Positions 7,355 to 25,930 of a stretch of 64,000 nt of DNA are shown piece by piece; positions within the stretch are counted from its first letter, which is position 1, and each line of letters starts with the position of its first letter. The stretch lies in IMG/VR virus record IMGVR_UViG_3300026198_000001, positions 7,031 to 71,030 of that record; one strand, 5' to 3'. The notes below the pieces were generated by a model. The model saw only the letters and a program-made list of their open reading frames with translations. It was not told where the DNA came from and searched no databases. This DNA is from a virus. Its lineage: Duplodnaviria; Caudoviricetes. Made by a program: the position numbers and the translations under genes.

Positions 7355-7357
7355 AAG

Positions 7358-9094
7358 CTATGCCCTCTTACGCCAAGGTCTTGTACTAACAGGCTTGCGT
7401 GTCAGTTTCCTACCAGTGGCTTCTTCAAACTCCCAATCCAGTAGCTCATACAGAGAGTCAAGCTGAGTCTCAAGGCTGTGCTTCATAAGCCGTATCTCTC
7501 TTGCAGATAACTTATGTTCTGATACCCCTGCACCTGCTACATCTTTAACAGGTACATCTTTGACTGGGTCAGTAGCTTTCTTAATTGCCTTCTTCCCAGA
7601 TGCCTCATCATCAGGTTCAGGTGCTGGATTCGCTACTATAACTTGAGGCTTGAGGGCATTGGCATAAGCAATATCCCTCTGTGCCCTGACATTGTCCAGA
7701 CTATCATCATTTTCAAGGCTGGTCTTTATCTCTGCAATATCCTCATCTGTCAAGTCAAGCATATTGCGATACACCCATTCAGTGCTTACCCCCAGCTCGT
7801 TCCTGTACTTCTTGGCGATTTCAGTCTTAACTGCTTCCATTTGCCATTCTCGCAACTCGTCTATGGCTGACATGATGGGCAGTCTAACTGTATACTCGTG
7901 GACAACTGGGTCAATACCTCTCGTAACTAAGACAAAATCAAAGAGCTTCCGTAATCCTGCTATCAATGCTTGCTGTACCCGTCTTTCTGTTTTTGCAAAC
8001 TGTACGTCAAGTTCAGTAATAACAGCTCTGGCATGGGTCTCACCTTCAAAGCCCATCCATGCTTTGGGTACTTTAAGTCCTGCAAACAGTTTCTTACTGA
8101 AATACTCAACATCGGCAAGTTGCCCAAGGTTCCCTGCCCCTTGCAGAATCTTTACGTCAGAACCAGAACCCTCTCGCTTAGCTAAGAATATGTCCTCCTC
8201 AGCAGACATCGGATTATAACGTAGGTCCATCTTACCCGTACTGGGGTCTATAGTCCGTTTCTTCTTCAGCTCTTTCTTGGTCTCCCTCAAATACTCCTGC
8301 GTAGGTTGTCCCGGCTCTATCCCAGTAACATCTATCATAAAGGCATAGCGTTGCTGTGCTCTAGTCAACCTTGCAATAACAACCCCGTCCTCCATCATGG
8401 ACAATTGCTTGAACACTTTCCTTATCGGGTACAGAACAGAACCATCTACACCATACTTGCTAGTCCTGTCTTTCTTGAGCAGGAAGTGCAGTATCTGCCA
8501 GTCCCTGAACTTGGCTTCTGTTTCCCCTGTGTCTGTGGTCTGCTCATACGGAAACTCTGGGTCAAGTCTACCCCACGTATCCTCAACTACCTTCATCCTA
8601 GCAGGGGCTAAGTGCTTAATACGGTGAACTTCAAGGTCATCATGCACTACTACCTCTTCGAAACAGTCACCATACTTAACCAACTCCCGTGCTATAGACC
8701 ACAGTTCTGAATCCAACTGGAGTCTCCTCTTTACTTCACCCAATACTTCAATCACAGTCTCAGACTCAGAAACGATTTCAATGGATTCGTTCTCTTCACG
8801 GTCACCACTGGTAGCATTGTCAGCATAAATGTCCAAAGCAGAAGCTATTTCAACTGCTTCTGTATCCATGCGTTCGTATTCTTTATACTTGTTCTTTCTC
8901 TTAGTCTCTAGCGTGGTTTCGTCTGCGTACCAGTCATAGGCCCCACCTCTGCTGGTATGCACCGAATCGCCAAACTCACGGCGTGTCTCAATAGCAGAGT
9001 CTACTTCAGGCGGGGCTTCATAAGCAGGATTGCGCCTAAACATGTCAGTCAATCTTTGCACTATATCTTCAACCAAAGGTACTTTCATAGCCAC
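7358..9094 (-). CDS. Portal protein, T4 gp20-like
   Basis: EIASALDIYADNAT, RELVKYGDCF, MMEDGVVIARLTRA, EEDIFL, DVEYFSKKLFAGLKVPK. Confidence 0.9.
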   Translation of the reverse strand: MAMKVPLVEDIVQRLTDMFRRNPAYEAPPEVDSAIETRREFGDSVHTSRGGAYDWYADETTLETKRKNKYKEYERMDTEAVEIASALDIYADNATSGDREENESIEIVSESETVIEVLGEVKRRLQLDSELWSIARELVKYGDCFEEVVVHDDLEVHRIKHLAPARMKVVEDTWGRLDPEFPYEQTTDTGETEAKFRDWQILHFLLKKDRTSKYGVDGSVLYPIRKVFKQLSMMEDGVVIARLTRAQQRYAFMIDVTGIEPGQPTQEYLRETKKELKKKRTIDPSTGKMDLRYNPMSAEEDIFLAKREGSGSDVKILQGAGNLGQLADVEYFSKKLFAGLKVPKAWMGFEGETHARAVITELDVQFAKTERRVQQALIAGLRKLFDFVLVTRGIDPVVHEYTVRLPIMSAIDELREWQMEAVKTEIAKKYRNELGVSTEWVYRNMLDLTDEDIAEIKTSLENDDSLDNVRAQRDIAYANALKPQVIVANPAPEPDDEASGKKAIKKATDPVKDVPVKDVAGAGVSEHKLSAREIRLMKHSLETQLDSLYELLDWEFEEATGRKLTRKPVSTRPWRKRA

Positions 9095-9144: not shown

Positions 9145-11088
9145 CTACATCACAACTTCTGGTACTCTTACGTTATTACTCGTGCTTGCTGTGCCTGCCA
9201 TTTCACCAAAAGACGGAGGCGGCGTGGGTTCTTTAACTCCCTCAGATTCACAAGCATAACATACTCCAGCTACTGCATCAGCTACGTCCTTGGAGCCGTT
9301 GGCAGGATGGTCTACCTTATTCTTTTTCTCGTTTCTCTCAAGACGAATGGTCTCCTCGAACAGTGGGTCATAGTGATACGTAATCAACCTGTCTTCATAC
9401 AAAGCATTCTTGTACGCTTCATATACAGCTGGATTCGTGTCGGCTGAAACTGTACCTGAGTCTATACCCGCCTGCTTAAATTGTTGCTGACTGTCTTTAG
9501 ACTGGAACGAGTCGTAAGTCACTCGCCGTATCGGATAACCATAGGAACGCAATTCATAGACAAGACTACGCACATCGGCAAACTGTATCTCCCCACCTTT
9601 TGGAGGCTTGATGCGGAGCATAAATTCAATTACAATAATCGGTGCTTTCATCGTGTATTCTATACCTTCTTCATTCCTGCGGGTTACTGCCTTGTATCCC
9701 TGCACATAGCCCATTGCAAAGCCAGTACTATCACCAGAGTACGAAAGGTCGGCATGAACAAAACGTGGCTTGCTCTTCAAGAAGCTAAGCTCCCTCTCCA
9801 GTCTTTTCCTTTCTTCTCCTACTGCTGAATCTATCTGTTTCTTGAGTCGTGGTATCCGCAACTTATCCATCAAGAACACACCTTTATCCTGAAGCGTGCT
9901 CTCCTCCAGTGAAAACGGATGCTCAAGCCCTATCTCTGCTCCTTTACTCAGTGCCTCAACCACTTTACTTCTATAGCGTATGTACGGTCTGATGGTCAAG
10001 GTCGGTCTGCCAGCAAAGTCTCGTATCGCCGCATCAATGTCCCCTTCAAAGTCCTTCCTGAACTCCTCGGGTATCTCAAGCAATGGCAGGTTCTTCTCCT
10101 CTGCCTTAGCATATTCCTCTTCATTTTCTATGATGCGTGGTGCTTCTGTACCATCTCCTAACGAAATCCAAAACTTCTTCCCTGTCCACCTATCAGCAGG
10201 GAGCGTATCCCACTGAGCATATCTCCTCGTGAATATCGTTGGGTCATCTTCCGCATCCTTGAGCCGGCGTTCCGTATAATCCTCTGGGTATCGACTTGAC
10301 GAAATCTGGAGCAGTATCCCGGGCAATTTCCCTTTCTTCATAAACCTTGACTTCATACGCCTTATCAGTGACTTCTGTAGGCTATCCGCTTGGTCATACT
10401 TACCGTTGGTCGTAGTTCTGGCCTTACTGTTCTCTATCACGGACATGAAGTTCACTTCGTCCATGACTCCACCAAATACGTTGTAACCAATAACACCACT
10501 GTCTCCTGCTGTGGCTGGGAACAACCATACATTATTCGGGAACCTGAGTTCATTGTTCCAAGGACCATACGGGTACTTCTCGACAAAGTACGGACTGGCA
10601 TGAATCTTATTCTTTATGCCTTGGAACACAATCTTCTTGGCATTATCCCGTGTAACCCCAACATTGAGCAAAACAATGACAGACCCCTTCATCAAGCCAT
10701 AGACTTTCTGGGGGTCTCTCAAACAAGAAATCTCATACAACATCCGACAAGTCGCTATCTCAGCAAAGGTTGACTTACCCCAACCAATGGCTCCTGTCAA
10801 AACAGCCTCTACATAGTCACCGTCAAATAACTCTTCAAGGTCATCAAGCAAACGTGGGAACACTTGTCCTTCCAAGCCAAGGTACTGGGGACTTTCAATG
10901 AACTCCCTCGTCTTCACTGGAACATACTTATACGTATAGCCCATCAGATTTTGCAGAATCTCTACTTCATTACCTTCGTTGTCACGCAGAATCTGCATCA
11001 GCATTTCAATATCATTTCTCGTGAACCCCAACGTTAGCTCGTCAAGACTCTGGACTATACGTCTATCCTCCAGTGCCAATGAACTCAT
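9145..11088 (-). CDS. Terminase large subunit
   Basis: Walker A GAIGWGKST, Walker B GVMDEV, RNase H-like nuclease HADLS...HPANGSKDVADAVAG. Confidence 0.92.
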   Translation of the reverse strand: MSSLALEDRRIVQSLDELTLGFTRNDIEMLMQILRDNEGNEVEILQNLMGYTYKYVPVKTREFIESPQYLGLEGQVFPRLLDDLEELFDGDYVEAVLTGAIGWGKSTFAEIATCRMLYEISCLRDPQKVYGLMKGSVIVLLNVGVTRDNAKKIVFQGIKNKIHASPYFVEKYPYGPWNNELRFPNNVWLFPATAGDSGVIGYNVFGGVMDEVNFMSVIENSKARTTTNGKYDQADSLQKSLIRRMKSRFMKKGKLPGILLQISSSRYPEDYTERRLKDAEDDPTIFTRRYAQWDTLPADRWTGKKFWISLGDGTEAPRIIENEEEYAKAEEKNLPLLEIPEEFRKDFEGDIDAAIRDFAGRPTLTIRPYIRYRSKVVEALSKGAEIGLEHPFSLEESTLQDKGVFLMDKLRIPRLKKQIDSAVGEERKRLERELSFLKSKPRFVHADLSYSGDSTGFAMGYVQGYKAVTRRNEEGIEYTMKAPIIVIEFMLRIKPPKGGEIQFADVRSLVYELRSYGYPIRRVTYDSFQSKDSQQQFKQAGIDSGTVSADTNPAVYEAYKNALYEDRLITYHYDPLFEETIRLERNEKKNKVDHPANGSKDVADAVAGVCYACESEGVKEPTPPPSFGEMAGTASTSNNVRVPEVVM

Positions 11089-11368: not shown

Positions 11369-11569
11369 CTATCCCTGCAAGAGTGCAAGCAGTTCTTTTT
11401 TACTCGCTCGTCTGTTGAACGTAATCCCGGCTTTCTCAAGCTCAACTGTTATCTCGGCCTTAGTCAGCTTTTCAGGTGGAATCGGAGCAACAGGCTTCTT
11501 CACTTTAGCCTTAGCCTTCGCATCTGCTTTACGAGCTTTCCTCCATGCCTTCAAAATCTCCTCATGCAT
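11369..11569 (-). CDS. Small basic protein with HeH/LEM-like (Rho N-terminal-like) motif
   Basis: LTKAEITVELEKAGITFNRRASKKELLALL; start at 11569 overlaps the upstream stop codon. Confidence 0.6.
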   Translation of the reverse strand: MHEEILKAWRKARKADAKAKAKVKKPVAPIPPEKLTKAEITVELEKAGITFNRRASKKELLALLQG

Positions 11570-12251
11570 TGACGTTCTCCTCCTTTTTCTTTTTCTTTGC
11601 AACTATATCCCGCATCGTTTTCCAATAGCTGGGATACCACTGCACCTTAACATAATCCTCCAGCTTAATCGGAGTGGCTTCACCATAAGCAAGGACCAAC
11701 TCTGGCTCTATCACCTCAACCATTTTCTCAAACCCTGCGATGAACAATTCCCTGACCTCCTTCGGTCTGTTTGCCCCTACAGTCGAGATGGCTACTATGC
11801 TTCCCTTCTCTATCCCAGCAAAGCAGAACTCATAACTCCTCTCGTCTGCCCAAGTTACAGATGGCAGTACTTCTATGCCATTACTCTGCCAATAGCAACC
11901 AATCCACCTACTACGATACGTATTCCAAACCTGTAACACTTTCGGGTACTCAGCATACAGACTAAAATCTGGTGTCAATGCCCTACCTGTCTTCTTGACT
12001 AAGGACAAAGTCTGCACTGGCCTAGTCCATACGTGTTCAAAGTGATAATCGTCAACGAAGAAATGTACAGCACCCTTCTTCATATCTACATCCCCACTCA
12101 CACGTTGCTTGACAGGCAATAACCACTCTGGAACAAAGTAGTCTTTTCGTAAAGTCGGGATACCATAATCATTGTCAATGCCAAACAGGTTGAACGTATT
12201 CAGTGCATCAAAATTCCCGGGCAACCTTTTCCAACTATTCACTGTTCTCAT
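11562..12251 (-). CDS. DUF4417-family protein
   Basis: HFFVDDYHFE, LTPDFSLY, WNTYRSRWIGCYWQSNGIEVLPSVTW, AISTVG motifs. Confidence 0.8.
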   Translation of the reverse strand: MRTVNSWKRLPGNFDALNTFNLFGIDNDYGIPTLRKDYFVPEWLLPVKQRVSGDVDMKKGAVHFFVDDYHFEHVWTRPVQTLSLVKKTGRALTPDFSLYAEYPKVLQVWNTYRSRWIGCYWQSNGIEVLPSVTWADERSYEFCFAGIEKGSIVAISTVGANRPKEVRELFIAGFEKMVEVIEPELVLAYGEATPIKLEDYVKVQWYPSYWKTMRDIVAKKKKKEENVNA

Positions 12252-12483
12252 CTATCTTTATCCCTGCCAATCTCTGTTGCTCTTTCTTGGCATTATCACT
12301 GAGTACCAGAAACGGACATGCCTTGCCATCAAAGAATACAGAATCAGGTATCCCATTCGGGTACTTTTCACAACTAGCCTTGTCAGTGACTTTCATCCCT
12401 TTCAAAGACTTCTCGTGCACCTTTACACATTCATAACACTTTGGCGGTTTTCTAGTTACCATAGTCCTGTCCTCCTTATGCAT
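12235..12483 (-). CDS. Small Cys-rich protein (CxxC...CEKYPNGIP...C)
   Basis: Overlaps both neighbours; C.x(Y/F)PxGIP motif. Confidence 0.6.
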   Translation of the reverse strand: MHKEDRTMVTRKPPKCYECVKVHEKSLKGMKVTDKASCEKYPNGIPDSVFFDGKACPFLVLSDNAKKEQQRLAGIKIDENSE

Positions 12484-13192
12484 AATTCTTGGTCAGTACT
12501 CCCTGTACAAACGCATCGAATGTACCTGCCTCAACCTTTCCACCTGTAGCTATCTTAGCAAAGGACTCAGCCCACGCTTCATGATGGTCTGTCTTTGCAT
12601 ACTGCGAACTAAGCTTCGTACTCTTGAACGCTTTTTTCATATCTGCCTCTTTCATCTTGCCTGTTGCTATCAGATGGTCTCCTACGGTGTGACCATACTC
12701 ATGCGAAATCAACCCACTTACTCCACCCGTTGACATCCATCCTGTCTGCTTGCACTGCGTATACTCCCTAGTCAACTTCTTCAGATTGTAATCACTGTCG
12801 ATATTCAGCTTCCCATCCCCAAACACAGCGTAAGCACCATCATAATCCTTACCCCAAGCTACAACCAGATTCTTAACCCCAAACTCTTTCAACCTGGTCT
12901 CCCCTTCTACTGGGTACTTATCCATAAGCCCGGACAATACATCTGCACCAGCTCGAGCAAGCATCTCCTGCTCAGCCTTCTTCATATTCCTCGAACTGGT
13001 GTACACAATCCTCACCCCGGGCAGTGCTTTCTCAATATCTTTTGCAGTCGGGTACTTTGCTTTCAGGTAGGCTTCAAGTTCCTTGTACTCAGCATCACTC
13101 AGCCCGTCATCTGTGGCACTTCCACCACCACCTAGTAACTGTGCCGCACGTGATGCTCTAGCATGACCTTTGCTTGCTCCTCTACCTCCCAT
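12476..13192 (-). CDS. Zincin-like metallopeptidase with an MGGRG N-terminus
   Basis: HEYGH zinc motif followed by SQYA...EAWAESF. Confidence 0.7.
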   Translation of the reverse strand: MGGRGASKGHARASRAAQLLGGGGSATDDGLSDAEYKELEAYLKAKYPTAKDIEKALPGVRIVYTSSRNMKKAEQEMLARAGADVLSGLMDKYPVEGETRLKEFGVKNLVVAWGKDYDGAYAVFGDGKLNIDSDYNLKKLTREYTQCKQTGWMSTGGVSGLISHEYGHTVGDHLIATGKMKEADMKKAFKSTKLSSQYAKTDHHEAWAESFAKIATGGKVEAGTFDAFVQGVLTKNYA

Positions 13193-14227: not shown

Positions 14228-14740
14228 CTAATAACCATTATCCTGCCGTTCGTGGTTCACCTTGTTCTTCTTCCAATATTCTATTTCAAGCTCGTCCGGC
14301 GTTACACCAAGGCACATACAGAAACCAAGGAACGTACCAAATGCATCCCACCAAGCATCTACCCAGTCTGCATGCATCTGCAAATCTGTCGGCTTGATTG
14401 CTAACAAAGATATACGTGCAAACAAGTCAAGTGCTATTACAACCAGCATGTCAGGCGTACCTACTGGAAACTTTAGGTTCTCCTTCGGCTGTACTTTGTT
14501 CGTTACTGCTATGGACAGCAGGAAGTGCAAACAGTCAGCCAACTCTTCCAGCAATCCCTCTCGTGGCTCTCGGTCCTTGCTCCAATGCTTAAAGAACCGT
14601 GCTTCGTTGCAAGCTTCTCCAAACTCTACTAAGAGTGCAAGTACCCTCCCTTCGTATGTACTCGCTGGAGTCAGTCCGTGCTCTTCACATACTCGGTCAT
14701 CCAATACCTTCTGTGCCTCAAACAGCTTCTTAATATCCAT
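14228..14740 (-). CDS. dut: Dimeric (all-alpha) dUTPase
   Basis: ALLVEFGEACNEARFFKHWS, LLEELADCLHFLLS, YWKKNKVNHERQDNGY. Confidence 0.88.
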   Translation of the reverse strand: MDIKKLFEAQKVLDDRVCEEHGLTPASTYEGRVLALLVEFGEACNEARFFKHWSKDREPREGLLEELADCLHFLLSIAVTNKVQPKENLKFPVGTPDMLVVIALDLFARISLLAIKPTDLQMHADWVDAWWDAFGTFLGFCMCLGVTPDELEIEYWKKNKVNHERQDNGY

Positions 14741-16547: not shown

Positions 16548-16573
16548 AATGGAGGCTTTCTATTGCCTCCATT
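16548..16573 (-). terminator. Stem-loop closing the modification operon
   Basis: AATGGAGGC / GCCTCCATT 9-bp inverted repeat about 30 nt after the ParB stop; weak U-tract. Confidence 0.7.
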
Positions 16574-16602
16574 TATCTTTCCAATCTTTCTGGTGAGTCC
16601 AA

Positions 16603-17385
16603 TTAAGCATCCTCTTCTTCAAAAATGCTTCCTTCGTCAGGTAGTGGGTCAAGTTCAGCTAACACAGTATCTCCATACTCAGTAATCAATTTCGAGAAAA
16701 ACTGTGTCATGTCATAGTTCCCTGACTTCAATTCCTCAACCACACCATCAATCATTTTCTTCTTTAGCTTCTCGTCCATCATTATCCACAGGTGCGTTTT
16801 CCCTCCGTACTGGAAGACCATGAAGTTCTGCTTGAGCGTGTCACCATAGGTACTGAACATTTCGTTCAAGATTCGTGACAGGTCATCGACTGTCTTCATC
16901 TCTTTCTTGGCCTTGCCCAACTTGTCTTGCAGTTCCTTCGGCAGTTCCTTCTTTACATTTACATAGAGCTGGTCAAATGCCTTAGCATCCACAAGAGCCA
17001 TCATTTCTTTCGTCAGCTCTTTCCCATACTTATCAGCCATCTGGTCAAACAGCTTCGTGAACTTAACTGGGTCAAGCTTGCCTTTGAGCATATTCATCCG
17101 TACAGTCTGGAACTTTGCCGCATCCATATCGAACTCATCCATAACATAAGCAGGTACTTCTGCCATTCCCAATACTTTGCATGCTTCCCAGCGATGGTGT
17201 CCTGACACTATCAAATACGTGCCATCATCTTCAGGCTTAACCATAATTGGCTCGGTCATCCCTATCTCACGGATGTTCTCAGTCAAGGCATTGAACACTG
17301 ACTCACTCTGCGTGTTCGGGTTCCATTCATTAGGCTTTACACTGTTAATATCCAGATACACTATCTCTCTACGCATTTCCTCCAT
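16603..17385 (-). CDS. ParB/Srx-like nuclease-domain protein
   Basis: KPNEWNPN...IGMTEPIMV...IVSGHHRWEA. Confidence 0.85.
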   Translation of the reverse strand: MEEMRREIVYLDINSVKPNEWNPNTQSESVFNALTENIREIGMTEPIMVKPEDDGTYLIVSGHHRWEACKVLGMAEVPAYVMDEFDMDAAKFQTVRMNMLKGKLDPVKFTKLFDQMADKYGKELTKEMMALVDAKAFDQLYVNVKKELPKELQDKLGKAKKEMKTVDDLSRILNEMFSTYGDTLKQNFMVFQYGGKTHLWIMMDEKLKKKMIDGVVEELKSGNYDMTQFFSKLITEYGDTVLAELDPLPDEGSIFEEEDA

Positions 17386-18839
17386 TACCTTACTCTCCTT
17401 TCAAATACGGGCAACCCTTCTTTGTTCAGTATATCTTCATAGCCAAGCAACTGCATCATGCGTCTTACAGTATGACCATACATAGTGCTTTCAACGAAGA
17501 TGTTCGTATTCGTCTCCTCTTTGATTACCCTTGCCACATCTTCCATACTGTACCTTTCCCGTCTTAGCCTGCTCTCCATTGCTTTGTACAACCATTGGTC
17601 CTTCATACGCTGGTAGTCAATCTCCAGAACTTCAGCAAAACAATTACTGATGAACCTCTCCATCTTCTTTGCTACAGACATCTTACCAACATGCTCTGCC
17701 AGCCAGTCTTCCATGAAAGCTATGCGACTTTGAGCCTCTTCCAGATTATCTACCACCCACAGTAGCCTAGCAAAGACCTCTTCCTCAGTCTCGCAGATAA
17801 ACGGATACTCTTCAGGCAAAAGTCCTTTCTGCCAAGGCTTCTTTAAATAAATCCCCACCTGTCCTGCCTGCAACTGCTCAAAGAACGAAAGACCAAACGA
17901 CTCATTCTTGGACATACAAACAAACACATCAGCTCCTTCAAGCAACCTTTCGTACTGCTCACGTGGTGGATTCACATGCAGTTCTGTGTACTTAGACAAT
18001 TCCTTGTACGCCTTTTCTTTGAACTCTTCTACAATATACTGCCTTGCTATTTCTGCACGTCTAAACGGCAAAGAGGCAACCAGCTCAACAGGCTTGCCAA
18101 GCTTCAGCATTTTCTCGAACATCTTACCTATCTTGTCTGCCTGCTTCACAGCTGACAGTGTGGTCGCAAACATAATGCGTACTTTCTCTGGATTCTTTCT
18201 TGGCTTAAACTTGATGCGGTCTACTGCTATACTATGTGGAACCACTACATTTTTCGTACCCATACTTCTGAGCAGAGTTGGACTCAGGTACTTTCTTGCC
18301 GCTACTTCCAACAGGTCTTTCTGGTACTCTGTCAGAAACATCGTGGGCATACTTGCTTGGGCAATGGTCTCAAGCAGATGGGCGTGTGGTCTGCTGAGCA
18401 ACTCATAGACTAAGAATGCAGGACGTACTATACTACATACTGTTATCGGAGCTGGCAAGAAGAACTTGTTCGTGTAATTCCCTGCCATTGCATAATTGTC
18501 CATCTGTACTGCAATCTTTCCATTGAACTCCAACATCACATCATAAAACGTGTCCCCACTACCTACATTGAAGTGCTTCCACCAGTCCTCCGTAGCAAAG
18601 TGCGTTGTGAACTTACGCATATACTCTACTTCTATTACTTGGTCTATGCCCTCCAGACTTGCATCCGTGTACTGCCACAAGTGTCTATCTTTCGGAACTG
18701 GCATAATAACATGAACATTTGGTAGCATAGACAAAGCTTTAGCTGTATCTATTGCACTCAAGCTGATACTGTGTCCTACAACATTACCTGTCCAGTAGGT
18801 CGGGTTCACTACCACCCTCATGTTCCTTACCCTCTCCAA
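17385..18839 (-). CDS. GT-B (GT4-like) glycosyltransferase 1 with a C-terminal extension
   Basis: ADVFVCMSKNESFGLSFFE (EX7E motif). Confidence 0.82.
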   Translation of the reverse strand: MERVRNMRVVVNPTYWTGNVVGHSISLSAIDTAKALSMLPNVHVIMPVPKDRHLWQYTDASLEGIDQVIEVEYMRKFTTHFATEDWWKHFNVGSGDTFYDVMLEFNGKIAVQMDNYAMAGNYTNKFFLPAPITVCSIVRPAFLVYELLSRPHAHLLETIAQASMPTMFLTEYQKDLLEVAARKYLSPTLLRSMGTKNVVVPHSIAVDRIKFKPRKNPEKVRIMFATTLSAVKQADKIGKMFEKMLKLGKPVELVASLPFRRAEIARQYIVEEFKEKAYKELSKYTELHVNPPREQYERLLEGADVFVCMSKNESFGLSFFEQLQAGQVGIYLKKPWQKGLLPEEYPFICETEEEVFARLLWVVDNLEEAQSRIAFMEDWLAEHVGKMSVAKKMERFISNCFAEVLEIDYQRMKDQWLYKAMESRLRRERYSMEDVARVIKEETNTNIFVESTMYGHTVRRMMQLLGYEDILNKEGLPVFERRVR

Positions 18840-19660
18840 AAGTCTAACACCTCGCTATCCTGCTGTATTCCAGTCACCTCTACAGAACTACCAAGCCAAT
18901 TCTTGAGCCGACTTATATCTGCAACACTGTGAAATGTATCTGTCCGTGCAGACTCACTCTCAATGACATACCGCAAAGTCGGATTCACAAGCTTAGCCAG
19001 CTCTATCAATTCCATAACACTGCGACCTACCCCTGTTCCTACATTTATGAGCCTTTCATTTGGTGGCGACTCAACAGCCTTGCAGATGATGTCCACTACC
19101 CTATCTACATGAATAAAGTCCCTCATCATTACGCCTTTGTTGAATGCGTAGAACGTCTCCTCTCTCCTCATACACTCGTCAAGAACATTTATCACGCCAT
19201 CACCACCACTGCCATAGACATTGAACAAACGGAGCATGGTAACAGGCAAACCACTATGGTGCAGGAGCATCTCTGCTCTATACTTACTCGCCCCATACGG
19301 CGTTGTTGTTCTTGGAAACGCAGACTCATCCTGCTGTGGACTACCATACACTGCCGCCGTGGATGCAAACACTATCCTACTTTGCAACCCTGCCCTTTTG
19401 ACTGCCTCAATCAGGTAACCTGTTGCCACTGTATTTGTCCAGCGCATTTCATCCACATCACCATACTTCTTTGCGGCAAGATGCACAATCACACTTGGCT
19501 TCACTATAGCTACCTCTAACTCTAACCTGCGAGAATCCCTAATGTCCACAGCTTGGTTCCCTCTGAAGTCCACTACTGACACGGTGTGCCCTAGCTTTTC
19601 CAGCTGTTTAACAAGGTGCTTTCCTATGAACCCTCTCCCTCCTGTTACCATTACTCTCAT
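18827..19660 (-). CDS. NAD-dependent NDP-sugar epimerase/dehydratase
   Basis: TGGRGFIG, HLAA, STAAVYG, YGASK, RLFNVYG, RDFIHV. Confidence 0.9.
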   Translation of the reverse strand: MRVMVTGGRGFIGKHLVKQLEKLGHTVSVVDFRGNQAVDIRDSRRLELEVAIVKPSVIVHLAAKKYGDVDEMRWTNTVATGYLIEAVKRAGLQSRIVFASTAAVYGSPQQDESAFPRTTTPYGASKYRAEMLLHHSGLPVTMLRLFNVYGSGGDGVINVLDECMRREETFYAFNKGVMMRDFIHVDRVVDIICKAVESPPNERLINVGTGVGRSVMELIELAKLVNPTLRYVIESESARTDTFHSVADISRLKNWLGSSVEVTGIQQDSEVLDFWRG

Positions 19661-19680
19661 CTGTACCCCTCCTCAATAAA

Positions 19681-21132
19681 CTACCTACTCCAACTCTTCC
19701 AATCTGGTACTACTAGCCGTGGCATTGGAGTCTGGAACGTGTCTACGTAGCCAATACCCAGCATCATCTTATACAGTTCATAGTCTTTCGGCATATTTGC
19801 ATTCGACAGCCTATCCTTATTCTTAACAGGAAAACTCCTGCCAATCTGGTTCAGCACAGTCAGCATCCGTTGCAACGTAATTGTCTCACCCGGCTCGAAC
19901 AATTCGGTAGCCTGCTTTATCATGCCTGCAACTCCACTGTACCTTGTGCAACTGATATTCACTTCAGCATCCATGCGAAGCAGAACCTGCTCCATCTGAC
20001 TATAAATTCTGCCAGCACTGAAGTTCTGGCGAATGTATTCCTTCATTCTCTCCATATCCTTGGAAACCTCGTCATAGTGGTCATAAATGTACATCAGCAT
20101 CCCATATGCTTCTTGCTTTGACTTGAACACCCACGGATACCAGTCTGGCAACTGGGACACAGCCCACTCTTCATTATGGAACAAGACAGGCATACCCATG
20201 TACATCTGCTCCCAGAAACCTACTGGAAACCCTTCAGACGTTGACCAACAAATCGCTACATGACTTCTTGAAGCAATCTCCATGTACTTATCTCTTGGGC
20301 AACTGAACGTGATGTCCAACACATCCTTTACCTTGTCATAAGCCTTGCTACCAGACTCATACGTAGAGAACTTCAGCTCATCCGTGTTGGTCGTAATCTT
20401 TATCTGTGCGTCCTTTCCAGAAGCAATGAACTTAGCATACAGGTCAAATATCAGCTCAGGCTGTTTGACATGATTCAACCTTGCCCCAAAGAACAGGGTG
20501 AACTTATCAAACTTCTCTGTCCCTTGCATTATCGTGTCTACCTTTTCTATAGGCACACCCACCGAGAGCATCAATGCTTGCTTCTCTATCCTCTTCACTT
20601 CAGTGGGAGCTAAGAACTTCCGAGCATTTCTGAGTGATACCACCTTCTGATGCTCAGTCAAGAATACTGGTACAGAGTAGGCATTTCCCAGTGCTTGCAG
20701 AGCATAAAACATCCTCGTATGACTCCTATTCTCCTGCATTTCGTAAACTGCTGGGTACAGAATCATACAAGGCACATCCGACTTGTGGACGATGTCCGAC
20801 AGAGTCAACTGGTAAATCGGAACCTGCGCTCCCATGTCTGTAACAATACAGTCTACAAAGTACTTGCCGGACACCCTCGAGAAACTATCAGCCAGTTCCT
20901 TTAAATCAACCATGCCAACTTCTGTATAAAAATCATACCCTTCATGGGACTTATACACATACATAAGCCCTGTCATTCGCGTTACCTGTGACTGTGCATA
21001 CTCTGGTACTATCATGTAGCAGAAATGCCCATTCTTAATCAGGGACTCTGCCAAATCCAGTGAAGCCAGATACCTACTATCCGTGTGGATATTCCTTAAC
21101 CCTATCTGTGGTACAATCAGTATCCGCATCAC
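19681..21132 (-). CDS. GT-B (GT4-like) glycosyltransferase 2 with a C-terminal extension
   Basis: SHVAICWSTSEGFPVGFWE (EX7E motif); paralog of GT1. Confidence 0.82.
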   Translation of the reverse strand: MMRILIVPQIGLRNIHTDSRYLASLDLAESLIKNGHFCYMIVPEYAQSQVTRMTGLMYVYKSHEGYDFYTEVGMVDLKELADSFSRVSGKYFVDCIVTDMGAQVPIYQLTLSDIVHKSDVPCMILYPAVYEMQENRSHTRMFYALQALGNAYSVPVFLTEHQKVVSLRNARKFLAPTEVKRIEKQALMLSVGVPIEKVDTIMQGTEKFDKFTLFFGARLNHVKQPELIFDLYAKFIASGKDAQIKITTNTDELKFSTYESGSKAYDKVKDVLDITFSCPRDKYMEIASRSHVAICWSTSEGFPVGFWEQMYMGMPVLFHNEEWAVSQLPDWYPWVFKSKQEAYGMLMYIYDHYDEVSKDMERMKEYIRQNFSAGRIYSQMEQVLLRMDAEVNISCTRYSGVAGMIKQATELFEPGETITLQRMLTVLNQIGRSFPVKNKDRLSNANMPKDYELYKMMLGIGYVDTFQTPMPRLVVPDWKSWSR

Positions 21133-21818
21133 TGGACCCCCTTCAACACTGCTATCAGCTCTTCTGGCGTGCAGTACATCAGAGCATCAAGAACAGACAG
21201 ATTCGGGACAAATCCACCCTTCATCTTTCTATACTCTGGGCACTGCCATTTCTGAACCCTAACTTCTATATTTGCCTGCTCAAACGAAAGCAAGTCTAAA
21301 TATGCATCATATGCTGGCTGTCCACACAGGTACACATCAGCATTGTGTTCTTCAGCCAGCATCAGCATCCAATCCGATGGCTTTTCTATACAATCAGGGC
21401 GTAGCCCTGCTTCAAGCAACTTTCCCTTCCACGCTACTCTCTCCATGACAACTCGTGCAAGAGTAATACCCAGACTCGCCATAGACCACTTAAACCGCTC
21501 TGCATTGAGGAACACCTCTACTACTAGCTCCATCACTTCTTTGTACATAGGTGCTTTGCCATACAACCGCTCCAGCTCAACAGCATGCTTGTGCGTCCAG
21601 CGTGAGGCATAGTCTGGTATCGCATCAAGCAGAGCCTGCCTGTTTCCACCACATACAGGTACAGTGAGTCTCCGTCCGTCTAACTCAGCCCTGCATTGTC
21701 CCGACCTGCGTGAAATCTGTGCCCCTGCTAAGCTAACAAAGACATCAGATTCGTACATCCTCGCAAAGTAATGCAGTCTCTGGAAGTACCCGGGCTGAGA
21801 TACACATACTGTTACCAT
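21129..21818 (-). CDS. WbqC-family protein
   Basis: QPGYF...SDVFV...Q...LTVPV...YGKAP...YLCG...PNLSVLDALM; start placed at MVTV (21818). Confidence 0.8.
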   Translation of the reverse strand: MVTVCVSQPGYFQRLHYFARMYESDVFVSLAGAQISRRSGQCRAELDGRRLTVPVCGGNRQALLDAIPDYASRWTHKHAVELERLYGKAPMYKEVMELVVEVFLNAERFKWSMASLGITLARVVMERVAWKGKLLEAGLRPDCIEKPSDWMLMLAEEHNADVYLCGQPAYDAYLDLLSFEQANIEVRVQKWQCPEYRKMKGGFVPNLSVLDALMYCTPEELIAVLKGVQ

Positions 21819-21819
21819 T

Positions 21820-23079
21820 CTATCCCCACCTTTCCTGTATCTGCTCAAACAGCTTCTGTTTCTTTATATCAGCACCTATATCAATACGATAGAGCATATC
21901 TTCAAAGGACACCCTCTTGATTGCCCAATCCGCAGACAACCGTGCATCTCGCAGAGTCTCACCTCTACCAACTGCAACCATGTGCCTACCTCCCTGTGTC
22001 CTCAATGCACTCAACGAGCCTTCCACCCCTATTGGTATCAGATTCTTCATGCCGCCCTTAATCTTTATGGGCATACCCTGCTTCACCATATCTGGATACG
22101 GATAACCTCCTCCTGCTAGAACAACACCAACTCCATACAATGCTCTATCAAAGTCACAGCCTCCTGCAAGACCACAACTCCATGCATGCAGGTACAAAGC
22201 CAAGTCTGCATCCAGCGTGTGCAACAGAACCTCTGTAGTCGGCGTACCCCATCTCGCTGTCCACTCAATGGCATACAGCTTGCCTGTATCCTGCTCGTAC
22301 ATGCAGTCAAGCCCAACCCTGCCAAAGTACTGCTTGCTAACTAAATAGTCACTCAAGGGTGCTATCATGGTCTCCACTATACCATTTGGTACGCAGTTCC
22401 ACACGACTGCACCCATTGCTCCGCAGAACGGCCCAAGGTTCCCACAGTACGTCCTCTTATAATCTGTCTGCAAACAGATGGGCACTGGCCCTCGCTCAGT
22501 TTGCATCCAAACAATATTCACAGGCGTGCCTTCAATCTTCTTCTGGAGCATAGCTACTCCATCTTGTGCAACAATGAGGCGTGCCTTCTTTCGAATCCCT
22601 GCTTTGTCTGCTGGGTCAAAAACTGTCACCCCTCTGCCGCCTGCAAAACCAAGCTGTTTTACCACACAATAGCCTGCCATACTCATCACATAGTCTATCT
22701 CACTGTCATTTCTTACTGTACAGAAAGGTGCTACAGGTACTCCTGCTTTGCTGACAACACTCAAGCCAAACTCTTTATCTGCTTCCAATGCTACTCCACT
22801 CTTTGACGCACCAAATACTGTATAGCCACGCTCTCTCAGCATATCTACAGTACCTGCGTAGCTAGGCTCCCAGCTGACAGGAACTATCAAGTCCGGCCTG
22901 AACCTCTCAACAAATGCGTTCATATACCAGTCATCGAGCAATGTGTCCCTGCAAACCGTTTCAAACATTGAATCCATGTACTCCCTACCACCTATAACAG
23001 CTAACGTGTGCTTATGCTTCTTCATATTCTTTGCCATTGCGTAGACACGCCCATCATTACCAATCAGCAAAACTCTCAT
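21820..23079 (-). CDS. PurD (glycinamide ribonucleotide synthetase)-like ATP-grasp ligase, divergent
   Basis: VFGASK...LEADKEF, VVKQLGFAGGRGV, DYKR...GP..GAMGA, EWTARWGTP; full N/A/B/C domain length. Confidence 0.8.
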   Translation of the reverse strand: MRVLLIGNDGRVYAMAKNMKKHKHTLAVIGGREYMDSMFETVCRDTLLDDWYMNAFVERFRPDLIVPVSWEPSYAGTVDMLRERGYTVFGASKSGVALEADKEFGLSVVSKAGVPVAPFCTVRNDSEIDYVMSMAGYCVVKQLGFAGGRGVTVFDPADKAGIRKKARLIVAQDGVAMLQKKIEGTPVNIVWMQTERGPVPICLQTDYKRTYCGNLGPFCGAMGAVVWNCVPNGIVETMIAPLSDYLVSKQYFGRVGLDCMYEQDTGKLYAIEWTARWGTPTTEVLLHTLDADLALYLHAWSCGLAGGCDFDRALYGVGVVLAGGGYPYPDMVKQGMPIKIKGGMKNLIPIGVEGSLSALRTQGGRHMVAVGRGETLRDARLSADWAIKRVSFEDMLYRIDIGADIKKQKLFEQIQERWG

Positions 23080-23093
23080 CCACTACCCTCCTC

Positions 23094-23774
23094 TTAAAAC
23101 AACTCTTCCCTACTCAGCACAAATGTAAAATTCGCTTTAGTCATCTGCGTGATGCTTACATTCTGTGTGACTCCTCGACATATCTCATAAACCTTCAGTG
23201 GGTCAAAGTACAGACGGTTCGGGTGGATGTGCGGAGCCTGCTCGTCCTTCAGGTCAAAGATTACAATTCCTTTTGTGCAAGCCCACAGCTTCCTGACACT
23301 CATATCTATGAAACCATACTGGTCCTCACTGAATATCGTATTCATGCACTGTGATGCTATGACAACATCAGCCATCTTAACAGTGGTGTCTTCAGCAAAG
23401 AAATCCTCCAACCTAAAATCAGTCTTTATCCTGTACTTATCCGCTCTTTCTAGTGCTATAGCCAAAAATTTCTCGACAATGTCATAACCAGTGTACTCGA
23501 CTACCCTGTGCAACATCTTTGCTTCTGCTAAATAGTCCAGTAGCATTGCCGTCCCACAGCCAACATCTATGATACTGACTGCACCAAACTTGACCTCTGC
23601 CAGAGCAACTATCTCCTTGACAATCCTGTCCATGAGGACTGTCTGTGTTCTACTATTCATGTGCATTAACGTAATCTCATCCTGTGCATCCTTCCACTTC
23701 TCACCATTCGTAAAGAACTCAGCTATCTTTTCTGCGTCATAAAGCTTACCCATCCCGCACAACCTACCTTTCAC
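23094..23774 (-). CDS. Class I SAM-dependent methyltransferase
   Basis: IIDVGCGTA motif I, YTGYDI motif II, DVVIAS motif IV. Confidence 0.82.
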   Translation of the reverse strand: MKGRLCGMGKLYDAEKIAEFFTNGEKWKDAQDEITLMHMNSRTQTVLMDRIVKEIVALAEVKFGAVSIIDVGCGTAMLLDYLAEAKMLHRVVEYTGYDIVEKFLAIALERADKYRIKTDFRLEDFFAEDTTVKMADVVIASQCMNTIFSEDQYGFIDMSVRKLWACTKGIVIFDLKDEQAPHIHPNRLYFDPLKVYEICRGVTQNVSITQMTKANFTFVLSREELF

Positions 23775-24863
23775 TTACTGAACCTCGTCTACCCACTCGT
23801 TGAACAATCTCAGGTACTCTTCTGGCACTTCTAACCCTTCCAACTCTGCTTGGTCTCTCGGGTCCAACCGTCCATTCTTCTGTGCCATCAGCACACCATT
23901 GTAAAACCCCTGCGGTGTCCCGGGGAACCTTCTGTCTGGCATAGCATACAATTTCTTATTGCTGGCATGCAATCCATCATACGCCCATGCTGGCAGTTCA
24001 ATTGACTCTGCATCTTGCAGTCTTTCATAAGCTATTTCCATAAACTTCTCTGCAAGACTTCTATACTGCTCTGCATTACGTATGGCGGTCTCCATCGTAG
24101 GCAAATCAGGCGTACTGCCCATGCAAGCCATAAACCTGAGCACCAACTGCCAGTTCCCATCTGCAAATCCAGTCTTTCTGTTCAGGACATAGCTTGCGGC
24201 TTTTCCTGCCCGGGCCAACCCGCCATCACCTAATCGCAATCCTTTCTTAACACACATATCTGTCAACCATTCATGATAATCATGCGGGTCGTGCTTCAGT
24301 TCTCTTAGCCTACGGAGCACGGCACTACTTTTCTTAGCATTCTCGAACCCACCCTCATCGACTAGCATGTCCATCTTAGCCATCAATTCTGGGATACTTT
24401 CAGACGTTGGCGTTGGCACTTTCTTTGATGTCAAGAACAATAGATTCTTTCTCCTACCATGCTCACAGTTCCACCAGTTCGCACCTTGGCATATCATAAC
24501 TGCCCCTAGCAGTACATCTACCTCAGTCGTTTTCTTATTTGGCTTCTGGTACAGCTTAACCATGTACTCAATGACGTTCTGGTCTACCCCATCTTCACAG
24601 GCATCTATCAACAGTCTACGCTTGACATAAAACGTATCCTGTCCACCTGCCATGAGCAACGCACCGTAGAACAGGGCGTGCTTCATTTTCTGCATACGAA
24701 GTGCTTTTATCATGGCAGACATTATCCCCGCTCTGTTTTTCGTAACAAAAGCTTTGCCACTTTCGTACGCCCATGCCTTCTTTTGCAGTTCAGGGCTTGT
24801 TTCACTGCGTAGCTCAAGCAATAGGTCCATCAAGGTCAGCTGTTTCGGCATCTCATTTTCCAT
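23775..24863 (-). CDS. Uncharacterised 362-aa protein with an MgsA/RarA lid-like helical motif
   Basis: KRRLLIDACEDG resembles MgsA RRLxxxASEDIG; no Walker A seen. Confidence 0.45.
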   Translation of the reverse strand: MENEMPKQLTLMDLLLELRSETSPELQKKAWAYESGKAFVTKNRAGIMSAMIKALRMQKMKHALFYGALLMAGGQDTFYVKRRLLIDACEDGVDQNVIEYMVKLYQKPNKKTTEVDVLLGAVMICQGANWWNCEHGRRKNLLFLTSKKVPTPTSESIPELMAKMDMLVDEGGFENAKKSSAVLRRLRELKHDPHDYHEWLTDMCVKKGLRLGDGGLARAGKAASYVLNRKTGFADGNWQLVLRFMACMGSTPDLPTMETAIRNAEQYRSLAEKFMEIAYERLQDAESIELPAWAYDGLHASNKKLYAMPDRRFPGTPQGFYNGVLMAQKNGRLDPRDQAELEGLEVPEEYLRLFNEWVDEVQ

Positions 24864-24904
24864 TTAGTCACCTTCTAATCTAAAATTTGTTAGTTGTTAC
24901 TTTA

Positions 24905-24933
24905 ATCTTAGCATATAACTAAGCTTTTGTCAA
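24905..24933 (-). promoter_or_regulatory. sigmaA promoter of the modification operon
   Basis: TTGACA AAAGCTTAGTTATATGC TAAGAT (17-bp spacer, TG extension). Confidence 0.8.
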
Positions 24934-24939
24934 TGCTGA

Positions 24940-25620
24940 CTAAACAACCATGCGTAATGCTTTGAAGGCTTCTGCATAAGGCAATCCAACCTCTACTCCA
25001 CGCCTTTCTGCCCACATTCGAATCGTCTGTGGCGAAATCAGGTGACTTGCTTCTCTAATCTGTGACTTATGGCATTCCATTGCACGTATCTTATCGTCAA
25101 TCACATCAGTTATGTCCAAGTGGAAACTTGAGCCACCCAGCTCTCCTACATGCCAGACTACAAACGGATACTCATACATAGCTACCAACTTTACATGAGA
25201 CGTATTCGGTGTGGGCCTCAGTGCCGCAAAGCTTGCGTCAAACACTGTCTTATGGTCTTGATGGAAAGACGGATACGGAAGGAACACTGCGGTAGGCTTG
25301 AACTTACGCACACGCTGGTCAAACTCCGTGACAAGGTCTACAATTGGCATTGTATGCAATCTCTGCTCAGAGTGTCTGTACAAAATCTCACCACTATCTG
25401 CATTCAACTCAAACAAAGCATTGTAGAACTCATTCTCCCTCGTGTCAGCTGTTACCAATGCATTACTATGGTAGAACTTCACATCCCCTACAGTAGCTAC
25501 TACTACGTGCACTTCGCCACCTTCATTCTTGACTTTCTTCATCAGACCACCACAACCAAGAATGTCATCGTCACTATGCGGAGCAATTATCAGCACCCTA
25601 TCCAACAACTTATCAAACAT
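24940..25620 (-). CDS. PIG-L/LmbE-family N-acetyl-aminosugar deacetylase
   Basis: IIAPHSDDDILGCGG, RENE, HQDH, AMECHKSQ. Confidence 0.88.
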   Translation of the reverse strand: MFDKLLDRVLIIAPHSDDDILGCGGLMKKVKNEGGEVHVVVATVGDVKFYHSNALVTADTRENEFYNALFELNADSGEILYRHSEQRLHTMPIVDLVTEFDQRVRKFKPTAVFLPYPSFHQDHKTVFDASFAALRPTPNTSHVKLVAMYEYPFVVWHVGELGGSSFHLDITDVIDDKIRAMECHKSQIREASHLISPQTIRMWAERRGVEVGLPYAEAFKALRMVV

Positions 25621-25639: not shown

Positions 25640-25930
25640 CTACATACTCTCCAACTGCAAGAAGAACACGATAATCGTTATCTCTTTCTGGAGCACCTCG
25701 TCAAATCGTGTGTCAAATCCCATCTTGATACGGAGTTCCTTAGCTTCATAGGCTAAGAACGACTGAGCAACAATAATGCTCTTCACAGCGGTGTTCACTG
25801 CTGTCTCTCCCATTGCAGTCAAGTGAACCACAGGAACTTCCTTCATGTACTTTGCTATGGCCCCACCAAGCTTATTCGGATGCGTCTTGTTAGCTACCTT
25901 CAACTCTACTATCTGGTCGTTATTCCCCAT
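25640..25930 (-). CDS. spoVS: Stage V sporulation protein S homolog
   Basis: LKVANKTHPNKLGGAIA...AMGETAVNTAVKSIIVAQSF aligns to SpoVS LKVSAKSSPNSVAGALA...AIGAGALNQAVKAVAIARGF. Confidence 0.8.
   Translation of the reverse strand: MGNNDQIVELKVANKTHPNKLGGAIAKYMKEVPVVHLTAMGETAVNTAVKSIIVAQSFLAYEAKELRIKMGFDTRFDEVLQKEITIIVFFLQLESM

Follow-up and report, generated by a model that had tools for sequence, protein, structure and literature searches.

A candidate glyco-hypermodification cassette built around a GT4 glycosyltransferase and a ParB-like protein in a tailed-phage genome

The window analysed here is a stretch of 64,000 nucleotides of viral DNA (Duplodnaviria; Caudoviricetes), corresponding to bases 7031-71030 of the 71,030-bp IMG/VR virus record IMGVR_UViG_3300026198_000001, which carries 127-bp direct terminal repeats and encodes every gene of its genome on the minus strand. 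Within the window lies a cassette of nine genes that centres on a GT4 glycosyltransferase (GT) and a ParB-like protein and that is considered here as a candidate glyco-hypermodification system (Table 1). Eight of the genes form a minus-strand operon running from 24863 to 16603, with a PIG-L de-N-acetylase gene upstream, as an earlier note made from the sequence alone had described, and the open reading frames (ORFs) were recovered at exactly these coordinates. The successive junctions of the operon are, in order, abutting genes, a 14-nt gap, a 29-nt overlap, a 4-nt overlap, a 20-nt gap (the largest within the eight genes), a 13-nt overlap and a 1-nt overlap. The operon was found to have its own vegetative promoter, which the PIG-L gene precedes with a stop codon 7 nt ahead, and a terminator downstream of the ParB gene, both of which the note had also proposed. 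The flanking gene assignments bear out its placement of the operon between replication and packaging genes. On the upstream side are a RecU-like resolvase, a Cas4-like exonuclease, a sigma factor, RecA/UvsX, a helicase, PolA, a primase and DnaB, and on the downstream side a dimeric dUTPase, the large terminase TerL (9145-11088), a portal, a protease and the major capsid protein. All of the note's family calls were reproduced with Pfam, with PHROGs in agreement; its title had left out the conserved first gene of the operon, which encodes a 362-aa protein.

Table 1. Genes and signals of the cassette and two neighbouring genes, in window coordinates
Feature	Position	Strand	Basis or remark
SpoVS homologue	25640-25930	-	directly upstream of PIG-L
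PIG-L/LmbE-type de-N-acetylase, 226 aa	24940-25620	-	PF02585, 67.1 bits vs cut-off 28.2
Sigma-70-type promoter, TTGACA-17-TAAGAT with extended -10 TG	24905-24933	-	sequence read
All-helical protein, 362 aa, two tandem MgsA/RarA C-terminal-like (clamp-loader collar-like) domains plus conserved C-terminal region	23775-24863	-	structure model; weak Pfam MgsA_C
Class I S-adenosylmethionine (SAM)-dependent methyltransferase, 226 aa	23094-23774	-	Pfam Methyltransf_31, _12, _25, _11
PurD-like ATP-grasp ligase, 419 aa, altered acceptor-site motifs	21820-23079	-	GARS_N, GARS_A, GARS_C
WbqC-family protein, 239 aa	21129-21848	-	PF08889, 108 bits; residues 18-231 = profile 1-216 of 218
Core GT4 glycosyltransferase, 483 aa	19681-21132	-	PF00534, 33.5 bits vs cut-off 26.4
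Short NAD-dependent sugar-nucleotide epimerase/dehydratase-family SDR, 277 aa	18827-19660	-	PF01370, 131 bits
Second GT4 paralogue, 484 aa	17385-18839	-	PF00534, 26.1 bits, just below cut-off 26.4
Short acidic ParB/Srx-fold protein, 260 aa, isoelectric point (pI) 4.8	16603-17385	-	PF02195, 46.5 bits (residues 8-90); phrog_26387, 2e-69
Hairpin terminator, 9 bp plus T-rich tail	16548-16573	-	30 nt past the ParB stop
Dimeric dUTPase	14228-14740	-	PF08761; downstream of operon

Local blastp comparison identified the GT encoded at 19681-21132 as the orthologue common to all relatives and as the one that is paired with ParB. When 50,697 phage records were searched by tblastn, this core GT was found in 20 records representing 17 phages of Arthrobacter, Stenotrophomonas, Rhodobacter, Rhizobium, Agrobacterium and Vibrio, and in all 20 the best ParB homologue lies immediately downstream of it, in RcZahn across the record ends. 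The earlier note had held that a failure of the homologous genes to co-occur in other phages would count against its proposal; co-occurrence is what the isolates display. Their commonest gene order is GT, a small ORF, ParB, an ORF of ~200 aa and the large terminase, and the module usually stands just before the terminase in other phages. The pair is also present in the metagenomic relatives L006, L007, L010, L011, L012, L021, L022, L025 and L027. GT and ParB reading frames overlap in the window, L011, DanielleIgnace and V-YDF132; in the window it is the stop of the second GT gene that the ParB start overlaps.

The genes that accompany this pair vary. L006, with a GT 75% and a ParB 78% identical to those of the window, has all nine genes in the same order. 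Both L007 and L010 share with the window PIG-L, the 362-aa protein, the PurD-like ligase, WbqC, GT and ParB, and have a GNAT acetyltransferase in place of the methyltransferase (MTase), the epimerase and the second GT, while L011, a prophage in a Thermodesulfobacteriota metagenome-assembled genome, combines PIG-L, WbqC, two MTases, GT and ParB with TerL and portal genes. Further relatives add aminotransferases, extra GTs or other ATP-grasp ligases, the number of GTs ranging from 1 to 3, and the distant L027 was reached through a homologue of the 362-aa protein with 26% identity. RcKickapoo has a minimal module of GT and ParB with no tailoring genes. L012 has the GT and an intein-bearing ParB and nothing more of the module, and because only these two are present there, GT plus ParB can be regarded as the minimal unit. 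WbqC and the 362-aa protein are missing in many carriers, among them DLP3, Kitkat and RcKickapoo. Tailoring genes thus differ among close relatives whose ParB proteins are 67-78% identical, and such fast turnover at a steady ParB has the appearance of an arms-race signature. Because synteny holds as ParB identity falls from 78% down to 30%, the gene set is far from a chance assembly. Megablast of the locus against the 50,697 phage records gave no match. IMG/VR yielded nothing when scanned with the single sequence of either the PurD-like protein or the GT and 3 loci only in an alignment-based scan, and a scan of 185,579 species genomes returned none. Inteins were seen in several proteins of the relatives, namely the ParB of L012 (11482-13557), the portal of L011 (16010-19654) and the terminases of L022 (11008-14151) and L006.

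The AlphaFold2 (AF2) model of the core GT (pLDDT 90) adopts a GT-B two-Rossmann fold, with tll1591, MshA, BshA and PimA as its nearest folds (Foldseek E 1e-10 to 3e-13); the matched MshA/BshA-type structures are 3c4q, 3mbo, 6n1x and 5d00. Its EX7E motif (E300...E308) is invariant across 29 GT sequences, the paralogue included. A C-terminal extension of ~110 aa is phage-specific, and full-length matches that include it are to phage GTs only, such as those of Kitkat and BeatusComedenti. The second GT is 23% identical to the core GT (blastp E 1e-27). It occurs together with the epimerase, whose GxxGxxG and YxxxK motifs are intact, only in the window and L006 among the relatives compared.

The N-terminal domain of the ParB-like protein aligns with Noc and Spo0J structures, and the alignment stops near residue 130-156. 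Where canonical ParB proteins have a GERRxR CTP box, the protein reads G-H-H-R in the window and G-E/H-H-R across the family. The altered box, the early end of the alignment and the acidic tail set the protein apart from a canonical chromosome-segregation ParB, which has a central helix-turn-helix parS-binding domain and a basic C-terminal domain. Elsewhere in the window, a 229-aa protein (11562-12251, minus strand) matches the C-terminal two thirds of phrog_940, annotated as 'nuclease' (E 1e-77), while the ParB of the cassette matches the N-terminal third of the same profile. This split match therefore indicates that a ParB N-terminal domain is fused to the nuclease-profile domain in other phages, the two being separate genes ~4 kb apart here.

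A second conserved protein without a recognisable catalytic fold is encoded by the first gene of the operon. The AF2 model of the 362-aa protein, built on the family alignment, is all-helical with a pLDDT of 93.5. Residues 41-130 and 155-250 match 3bge, 3pvs and 2r9g with Z about 10 (VIA), clamp-loader collar domains are matched with Z 5-7.5, and Foldseek gives a probability of 1.00 to 3ctd and 3bge and nothing beyond MgsA_C. Only the MgsA/RarA C-terminal domain was matched, with no AAA+ ATPase or P-loop domain. The family is rare (38 clusters in 1.8 billion representatives), has 13 invariant residues, and has syntenic members in L006, L007, L010, V-YDF132 and L027. No enzyme could be recognised from the fold, and a role as a missing base oxidase was rejected for a protein that is all-helical and has no jelly roll. 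As modelled, it looks like a second non-catalytic partner, derived from a DNA-replication protein.

Among the predicted tailoring enzymes, the PIG-L protein has its metal-site motifs (H-S-D-D near residue 15 and H-Q-D-H near residue 120), and its best NCBIfam matches are BshB1 and BshB2, both under cut-off. It is kept in L006, L007, L010, L011, V-YDF132, DanielleIgnace and DLP3, and nine of the 12 phage records with a PIG-L homologue, out of the 50,697, belong to GT-ParB modules. Outside the GT-ParB phages, Escherichia phage EP_H11 (OP688485, L029) has a PIG-L homologue ~4 kb from a 357-aa 'thymidylate synthase' (features 6989-7600 and 11548-12621); the latter is unusually long, and its neighbours are hypothetical genes. 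This pair may belong to a separate, pre-replicative amino-sugar DNA modification cluster.

The PurD-like ligase shares with glycinamide ribonucleotide synthetase (PurD) the three GARS domains, homology over its full length, including to solved PurD structures (E 5e-29 to 5vev), and the ATP-grasp core: K141, K208, E272 and R276 do not vary, and neither the ATP-grasp lysines nor the Mg-binding glutamate has been lost. It differs from PurD in scoring below the equivalog cut-off (TIGR00877, 154 bits against 288), in the absence of purine-pathway context around its gene, and in three motifs, where GGREHA has become (D)GR(V/A/S)Y(A/S), GPNTGGMG has become GPFCGAMG or GPMTAEMG, and E-F-N-x-R-F-G-D-P-E has become E-(W/F)-T-A-R-(W/F)-G-(T/D)-P-T. 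These motifs are changed alike in both phage subgroups; in one alignment, GGREHA and NxRFGDPE were altered in 6/6 phage sequences and kept in 6/6 more distant members of the PurD family. Homologues of at least 54% identity are few and metagenomic, the one inspected sitting on a phage contig, and the next matches drop to about 30% identity, where the one inspected was a genuine bacterial PurD beside purH. To judge from these features, the protein encoded at 21820-23079 works like PurD but is not PurD. All Atlas neighbours of the WbqC protein are themselves WbqC. The earlier note's statement that WbqC has been proposed to glycylate aminosugars could not be verified, and the family is described as uncharacterised (PMC5532660). 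WbqC is paired with the PurD-like ligase in L006, L007, L010 and L027 and occurs without it in L011. The distant lineage of L027 (3802-14993) has two WbqC and two PurD-like genes, one of the latter with a LAGLIDADG intein, and alongside them a GT of 535 aa, a ParB of 362 aa and a relative of the 362-aa protein of the window. Because there are two of each, L027 suggests that WbqC and PurD-like proteins act as pairs.

The families of the cassette recall a known biosynthetic order. In mycothiol and bacillithiol synthesis, a GT4 enzyme adds N-acetylglucosamine (GlcNAc) to a hydroxyl, a PIG-L enzyme frees the amine, an ATP-dependent ligase acylates it and the new amine is capped. The cassette shares this step logic and two of the enzyme folds (GT4 and PIG-L) with the MshA-MshB-MshC-MshD and BshA-BshB-BshC pathways. 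It differs from them in having a PurD-type ATP-grasp ligase and WbqC, as opposed to the aminoacyl-tRNA synthetase-like MshC or BshC, and in its MTase cap, second sugar, ParB and MgsA_C-like partners. No MshC or BshC family was matched in NCBIfam, and the resemblance is one of logic only; those pathways use inositol phosphate or malate as the acceptor, and the acceptor here is probably macromolecular. In the pathway that we propose, the first four steps of which are read from families and synteny, the core MshA/BshA-like retaining GT4 would move an N-acetylhexosamine (HexNAc) from host UDP-HexNAc onto a hydroxyl-bearing acceptor. The ParB-like protein, whose gene is translationally coupled, would assist it, with the 362-aa protein as a possible further helper, much as ParB176 activates its thymine dioxygenase on double-stranded DNA. 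PIG-L would strip the N-acetyl group, and the PurD-like ligase with WbqC would attach glycine, or some other small carboxylate, to the amine thus exposed on the sugar. The MTase, or the GNAT acetyltransferase in relatives, would cap the new amine. The epimerase could supply a second nucleotide sugar for the paralogous GT to add, which would give a disaccharide. Because the MTase (window, L006) alternates with GNAT (L007, L010) at the same position, the added acyl group would be expected to have a free amine, which fits an amino acid such as glycine. The earlier note's order of HexNAc transfer, de-N-acetylation, ATP-grasp acylation of the freed amine and methylation is in keeping with the families and with this MTase/GNAT swap.

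What the sugar would be placed on is a harder question. We give about an even chance to the reading that the cassette performs glyco-hypermodification and that it most likely acts on the phage's own DNA, between replication and packaging. DNA is put first because ParB-like proteins are demonstrated activators of phage DNA dioxygenases: experiments have shown proteins of this same architecture, with a nucleotide-binding domain, a helical C-terminal part and no helix-turn-helix, to activate phage thymine dioxygenases on double-stranded DNA, and the commonest neighbours in surveys of those dioxygenases are GTs, ParBs, terminases, epimerases and O-MTases (PMC13229309). A ParBc protein also accompanies the phage DNA carboxymethyltransferase CmoX (PMC12783734). 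The earlier note's argument for DNA stands insofar as the link between ParB and phage DNA modification is real and published (PMC13229309), while the substrate itself is something we infer. Also in favour of DNA would be the MgsA_C fold of the second partner, the position between replication/recombination and packaging genes, the fast turnover of tailoring genes and the near-confinement of PIG-L to these modules.

Two sets of published clusters can be compared with the cassette. Like the ParB-dependent thymine dioxygenase clusters of 5mYOX clade C1 (O'Toole et al., PNAS 2026, PMC13229309), it encodes, beside a modifying enzyme, a short ParB-like protein that has a nucleotide-binding domain at its N terminus but lacks an obvious DNA-binding domain, has GT, epimerase, O-MTase and terminase neighbours, and is post-replicative by context. 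It differs in that no TET/JBP enzyme is present here or in nine other carriers, in that ParB is coupled to a GT4, and in that the tailoring would fall on the sugar and not on the base. The GT clusters of phages that glycosylate 5-hydroxymethylcytosine (5hmC) have HexNAc mono- and disaccharides among their products, with ParB and terminase noted as neighbours, and their subclass I has two successive GTs and their subclass II an epimerase plus a GT, as here (Pyle et al., 10.1101/2023.12.21.572611). Those clusters need a C5-MTase plus 5mYOX or ThyA homologues, none of which is found here, and PIG-L, PurD-like, WbqC and MgsA_C-like genes are not mentioned in connection with them (10.1101/2023.12.21.572611). 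The earlier note did not recognise its modification among described phage pathways; the locus is not wholly unlike them, since phage DNA-modification neighbourhoods that bring together GT, epimerase, ParB and terminase have already been published (Pyle et al. 2023/2024; O'Toole et al. 2026).

A number of observations weigh against DNA as the substrate, beginning with the acceptor. A retaining GT4 normally needs an oxygen nucleophile, and canonical DNA has one only at its ends. The earlier note saw no TET/JBP enzyme in the window, and this extends to the whole 71,030-bp genome (PF12851, no match at E<=10); neither Tet_JBP nor Thymidylat_synt occurs in any of 10 carrier genomes or contigs, this one and nine others, seven of which are complete isolates or at least 90% complete. 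ThyX is absent from this genome too (DLP3 has a weak ThyX-like match), and family searches found no base-modifying family among the other ORFs of the genome. In a genome with no TET/JBP, ThyA-type or ThyX enzyme, the sugar would have to go onto a canonical position or an end of the DNA, unless the handle for glycosylation is made by an enzyme that was not recognised. Neither GT is basic, the C-terminal extension of the core GT gave no Atlas match and no assignable DNA-binding fold, and the ParB-like protein, with its acidic tail and pI of 4.8, matched no helix-turn-helix (HTH) family in Pfam or NCBIfam.

Restriction-site counts point in the same direction. Against a second-order Markov expectation, the whole genome has 0 GATC sites where 136 are expected, 6 CGCG against 43, 31 GGCC against 128 and 21 GCGC against 72, and each of ten 6-bp palindromes is found once at most, among them CTGCAG (0 against 23), GGTACC (0 against 16) and CCATGG (0 against 15). 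Avoidance so extreme is an argument that type II enzymes can still reach the DNA and fits badly with the anti-restriction armour suggested in the earlier note; a modification would probably be partial or site-specific and not a global shield. The DNA of the carrier Stenotrophomonas phage DLP3 was reported to be uncut by 15/15 enzymes, including SmaI, ClaI and EcoRI (PMC7326821). Nine of these enzymes (BamHI, HindIII, KpnI, SphI, PstI, SacI, SalI, ApaI and XhoI) have no site at all in DLP3 (MT110073; L016-L020), where 6 to 42 sites are expected for each, and the 15-enzyme resistance was accordingly not accepted at face value. This zero-site pattern is strong site avoidance and no proof of modification. 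The informative enzymes are SmaI with 68 sites, ClaI with 18, EcoRI with 7, NdeI with 4 and XbaI with 1; the reported failure of the first three to cut counts in favour of DNA as the target, and for some enzymes the remaining resistance could be due to ordinary methylation. Literature on the carriers DLP3, RcDurkin, VH2_2019 and V-YDF132 contains no nucleoside analysis, and that on the last three gives no data on DNA modification of any kind. A described pathway to arabinosyl-5-hydroxycytosine (PMC13326640) concerns a different phage, Acinetobacter DLP3, needs a ThyA homologue and is inapplicable here.

These points leave room for substrates other than DNA. Some GT4 enzymes are protein O-GlcNAc transferases that depend on a non-catalytic partner, and one of the fold matches of the core GT is SdgB, so that the target might be a virion protein, a DNA-bound phage protein or a polymer of the host wall or envelope, with ParB as a partner subunit or with an unrelated role in packaging. 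In the glycosylation of mycobacteriophage capsids and tail tubes, phage GTs and methyltransferases likewise put a variable glycan on a phage macromolecule; to our knowledge, the genes for this are located in the structural block, and neither a ParB nor an MgsA_C-like protein partners them. The missing acceptor-forming enzyme and the site avoidance, which marks the DNA as unshielded, would both be compatible with such a target, and in DLP3 the epimerase gp97 was detected in a virion preparation by mass spectrometry and the authors suggested modification of lipopolysaccharide (LPS; PMC7326821). What this account explains poorly is why the cassette should be so strictly paired with ParB_N and MgsA_C-like proteins in phages whose hosts, Gram-positive and Gram-negative, have unrelated envelopes. 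The operon encodes no signal peptide, membrane GT or flippase and no known structural protein, and its genes sit with early and middle replication and recombination genes, outside the structural block. We consider a protein or envelope target unlikely, while giving it appreciable weight.

The one-to-one correspondence of steps with MshA, MshB, MshC and MshD, clearest in L007 and L010 (GT4, PIG-L, ATP-dependent ligase, GNAT), raises the further possibility of a soluble mycothiol- or bacillithiol-like acyl-aminoacyl-glucosaminide, for which the ParB/Srx protein would be a SerK/SbnI-like kinase that supplies or activates the acceptor. The protein does weakly match SerK and SbnI in NCBIfam, as well as free serine kinase structures, and its acidic character and want of an HTH suit this role; its scores against Noc, Spo0J and ParB are nevertheless higher than that against SerK. 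Minimal GT-plus-ParB modules without tailoring genes (L012, RcKickapoo) make little sense for a soluble product, variable tailoring genes and GT numbers are typical of glycan decoration and not of a cofactor, and the fixed pre-terminase position and MgsA_C-like partner would be left without a role, all of which makes this very improbable. Nearly as improbable is that DNA is the target by way of a conventional handle, such as 5-hydroxymethyluracil (5hmU) or 5-hydroxycytosine (5hoC), first made by an unrecognised enzyme such as WbqC or another unassigned phage or host protein, which would place the cassette in the ordinary class of 5-hydroxy(methyl)pyrimidine glycosylation. Phage-specific 5mYOX profiles did find thousands of contigs without a Pfam TET/JBP annotation (O'Toole et al., PMC13229309), and several ORFs of the genome have no assignment. 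Against this reading, all nine genes of the locus have an assigned fold or family, with nothing dioxygenase- or ThyA-like among them, the all-helical 362-aa protein has no jelly roll, minimal modules hold only GT and ParB, and many carriers lack WbqC and the 362-aa protein.

Within the reading that DNA is the target, a more specific proposal can be made: that an MshA-like GT4 with ParB-fold and MgsA_C-fold partners glycosylates phage DNA without a 5-hydroxymethyl or 5-hydroxy pyrimidine handle, at a canonical base atom, the backbone or the genome ends, and that mycothiol-like chemistry then converts the sugar, already on the DNA, into an N-methyl-aminoacyl-hexosamine disaccharide. We regard this proposal as tentative and as less likely than not to be right. 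Every characterised phage DNA glycosylation known to us starts from a hydroxyl made by a ThyA homologue or a TET/JBP dioxygenase.

Some features of the surroundings were recorded alongside the cassette. The SpoVS homologue upstream of PIG-L is kept at that place in L006, L007, L010, L021 and L027. The SpoVS homologue, sigma factor, RecU-like resolvase and LysM amidase in the genome together point to a spore-forming Bacillota as the probable host. A second copy of the promoter (16367-16339, minus strand), with hexamers and spacing identical to those at 24933-24905, stands before the next operon downstream.

Relative to published accounts, a GT-ParB module without any 5mYOX or ThyA homologue appears not to have been described, and the same holds for an MgsA_C-like partner and for an aminoacyl-aminosugar tail of PIG-L, PurD-like ligase and WbqC. 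The module is widespread and, without ThyA or TET/JBP, occurs in cultured, tractable phages of Stenotrophomonas, Vibrio, Arthrobacter, Rhodobacter and Rhizobium. Were DNA not the target, the strict coupling to ParB would still need explaining. If DNA is the target, the module would open a new entry point into DNA hypermodification, would give ParB-fold proteins a second class of client enzyme, and would bring on-polymer aminoacyl-aminosugar chemistry (PIG-L, PurD-like ligase, WbqC), undescribed for nucleic acids, together with a first function for the WbqC family and for this offshoot of PurD. Should handle-free glycosylation of DNA prove true, it would represent a new class of acceptor chemistry, with a role such as packaging or the marking of the phage's own DNA, and not blanket anti-restriction.

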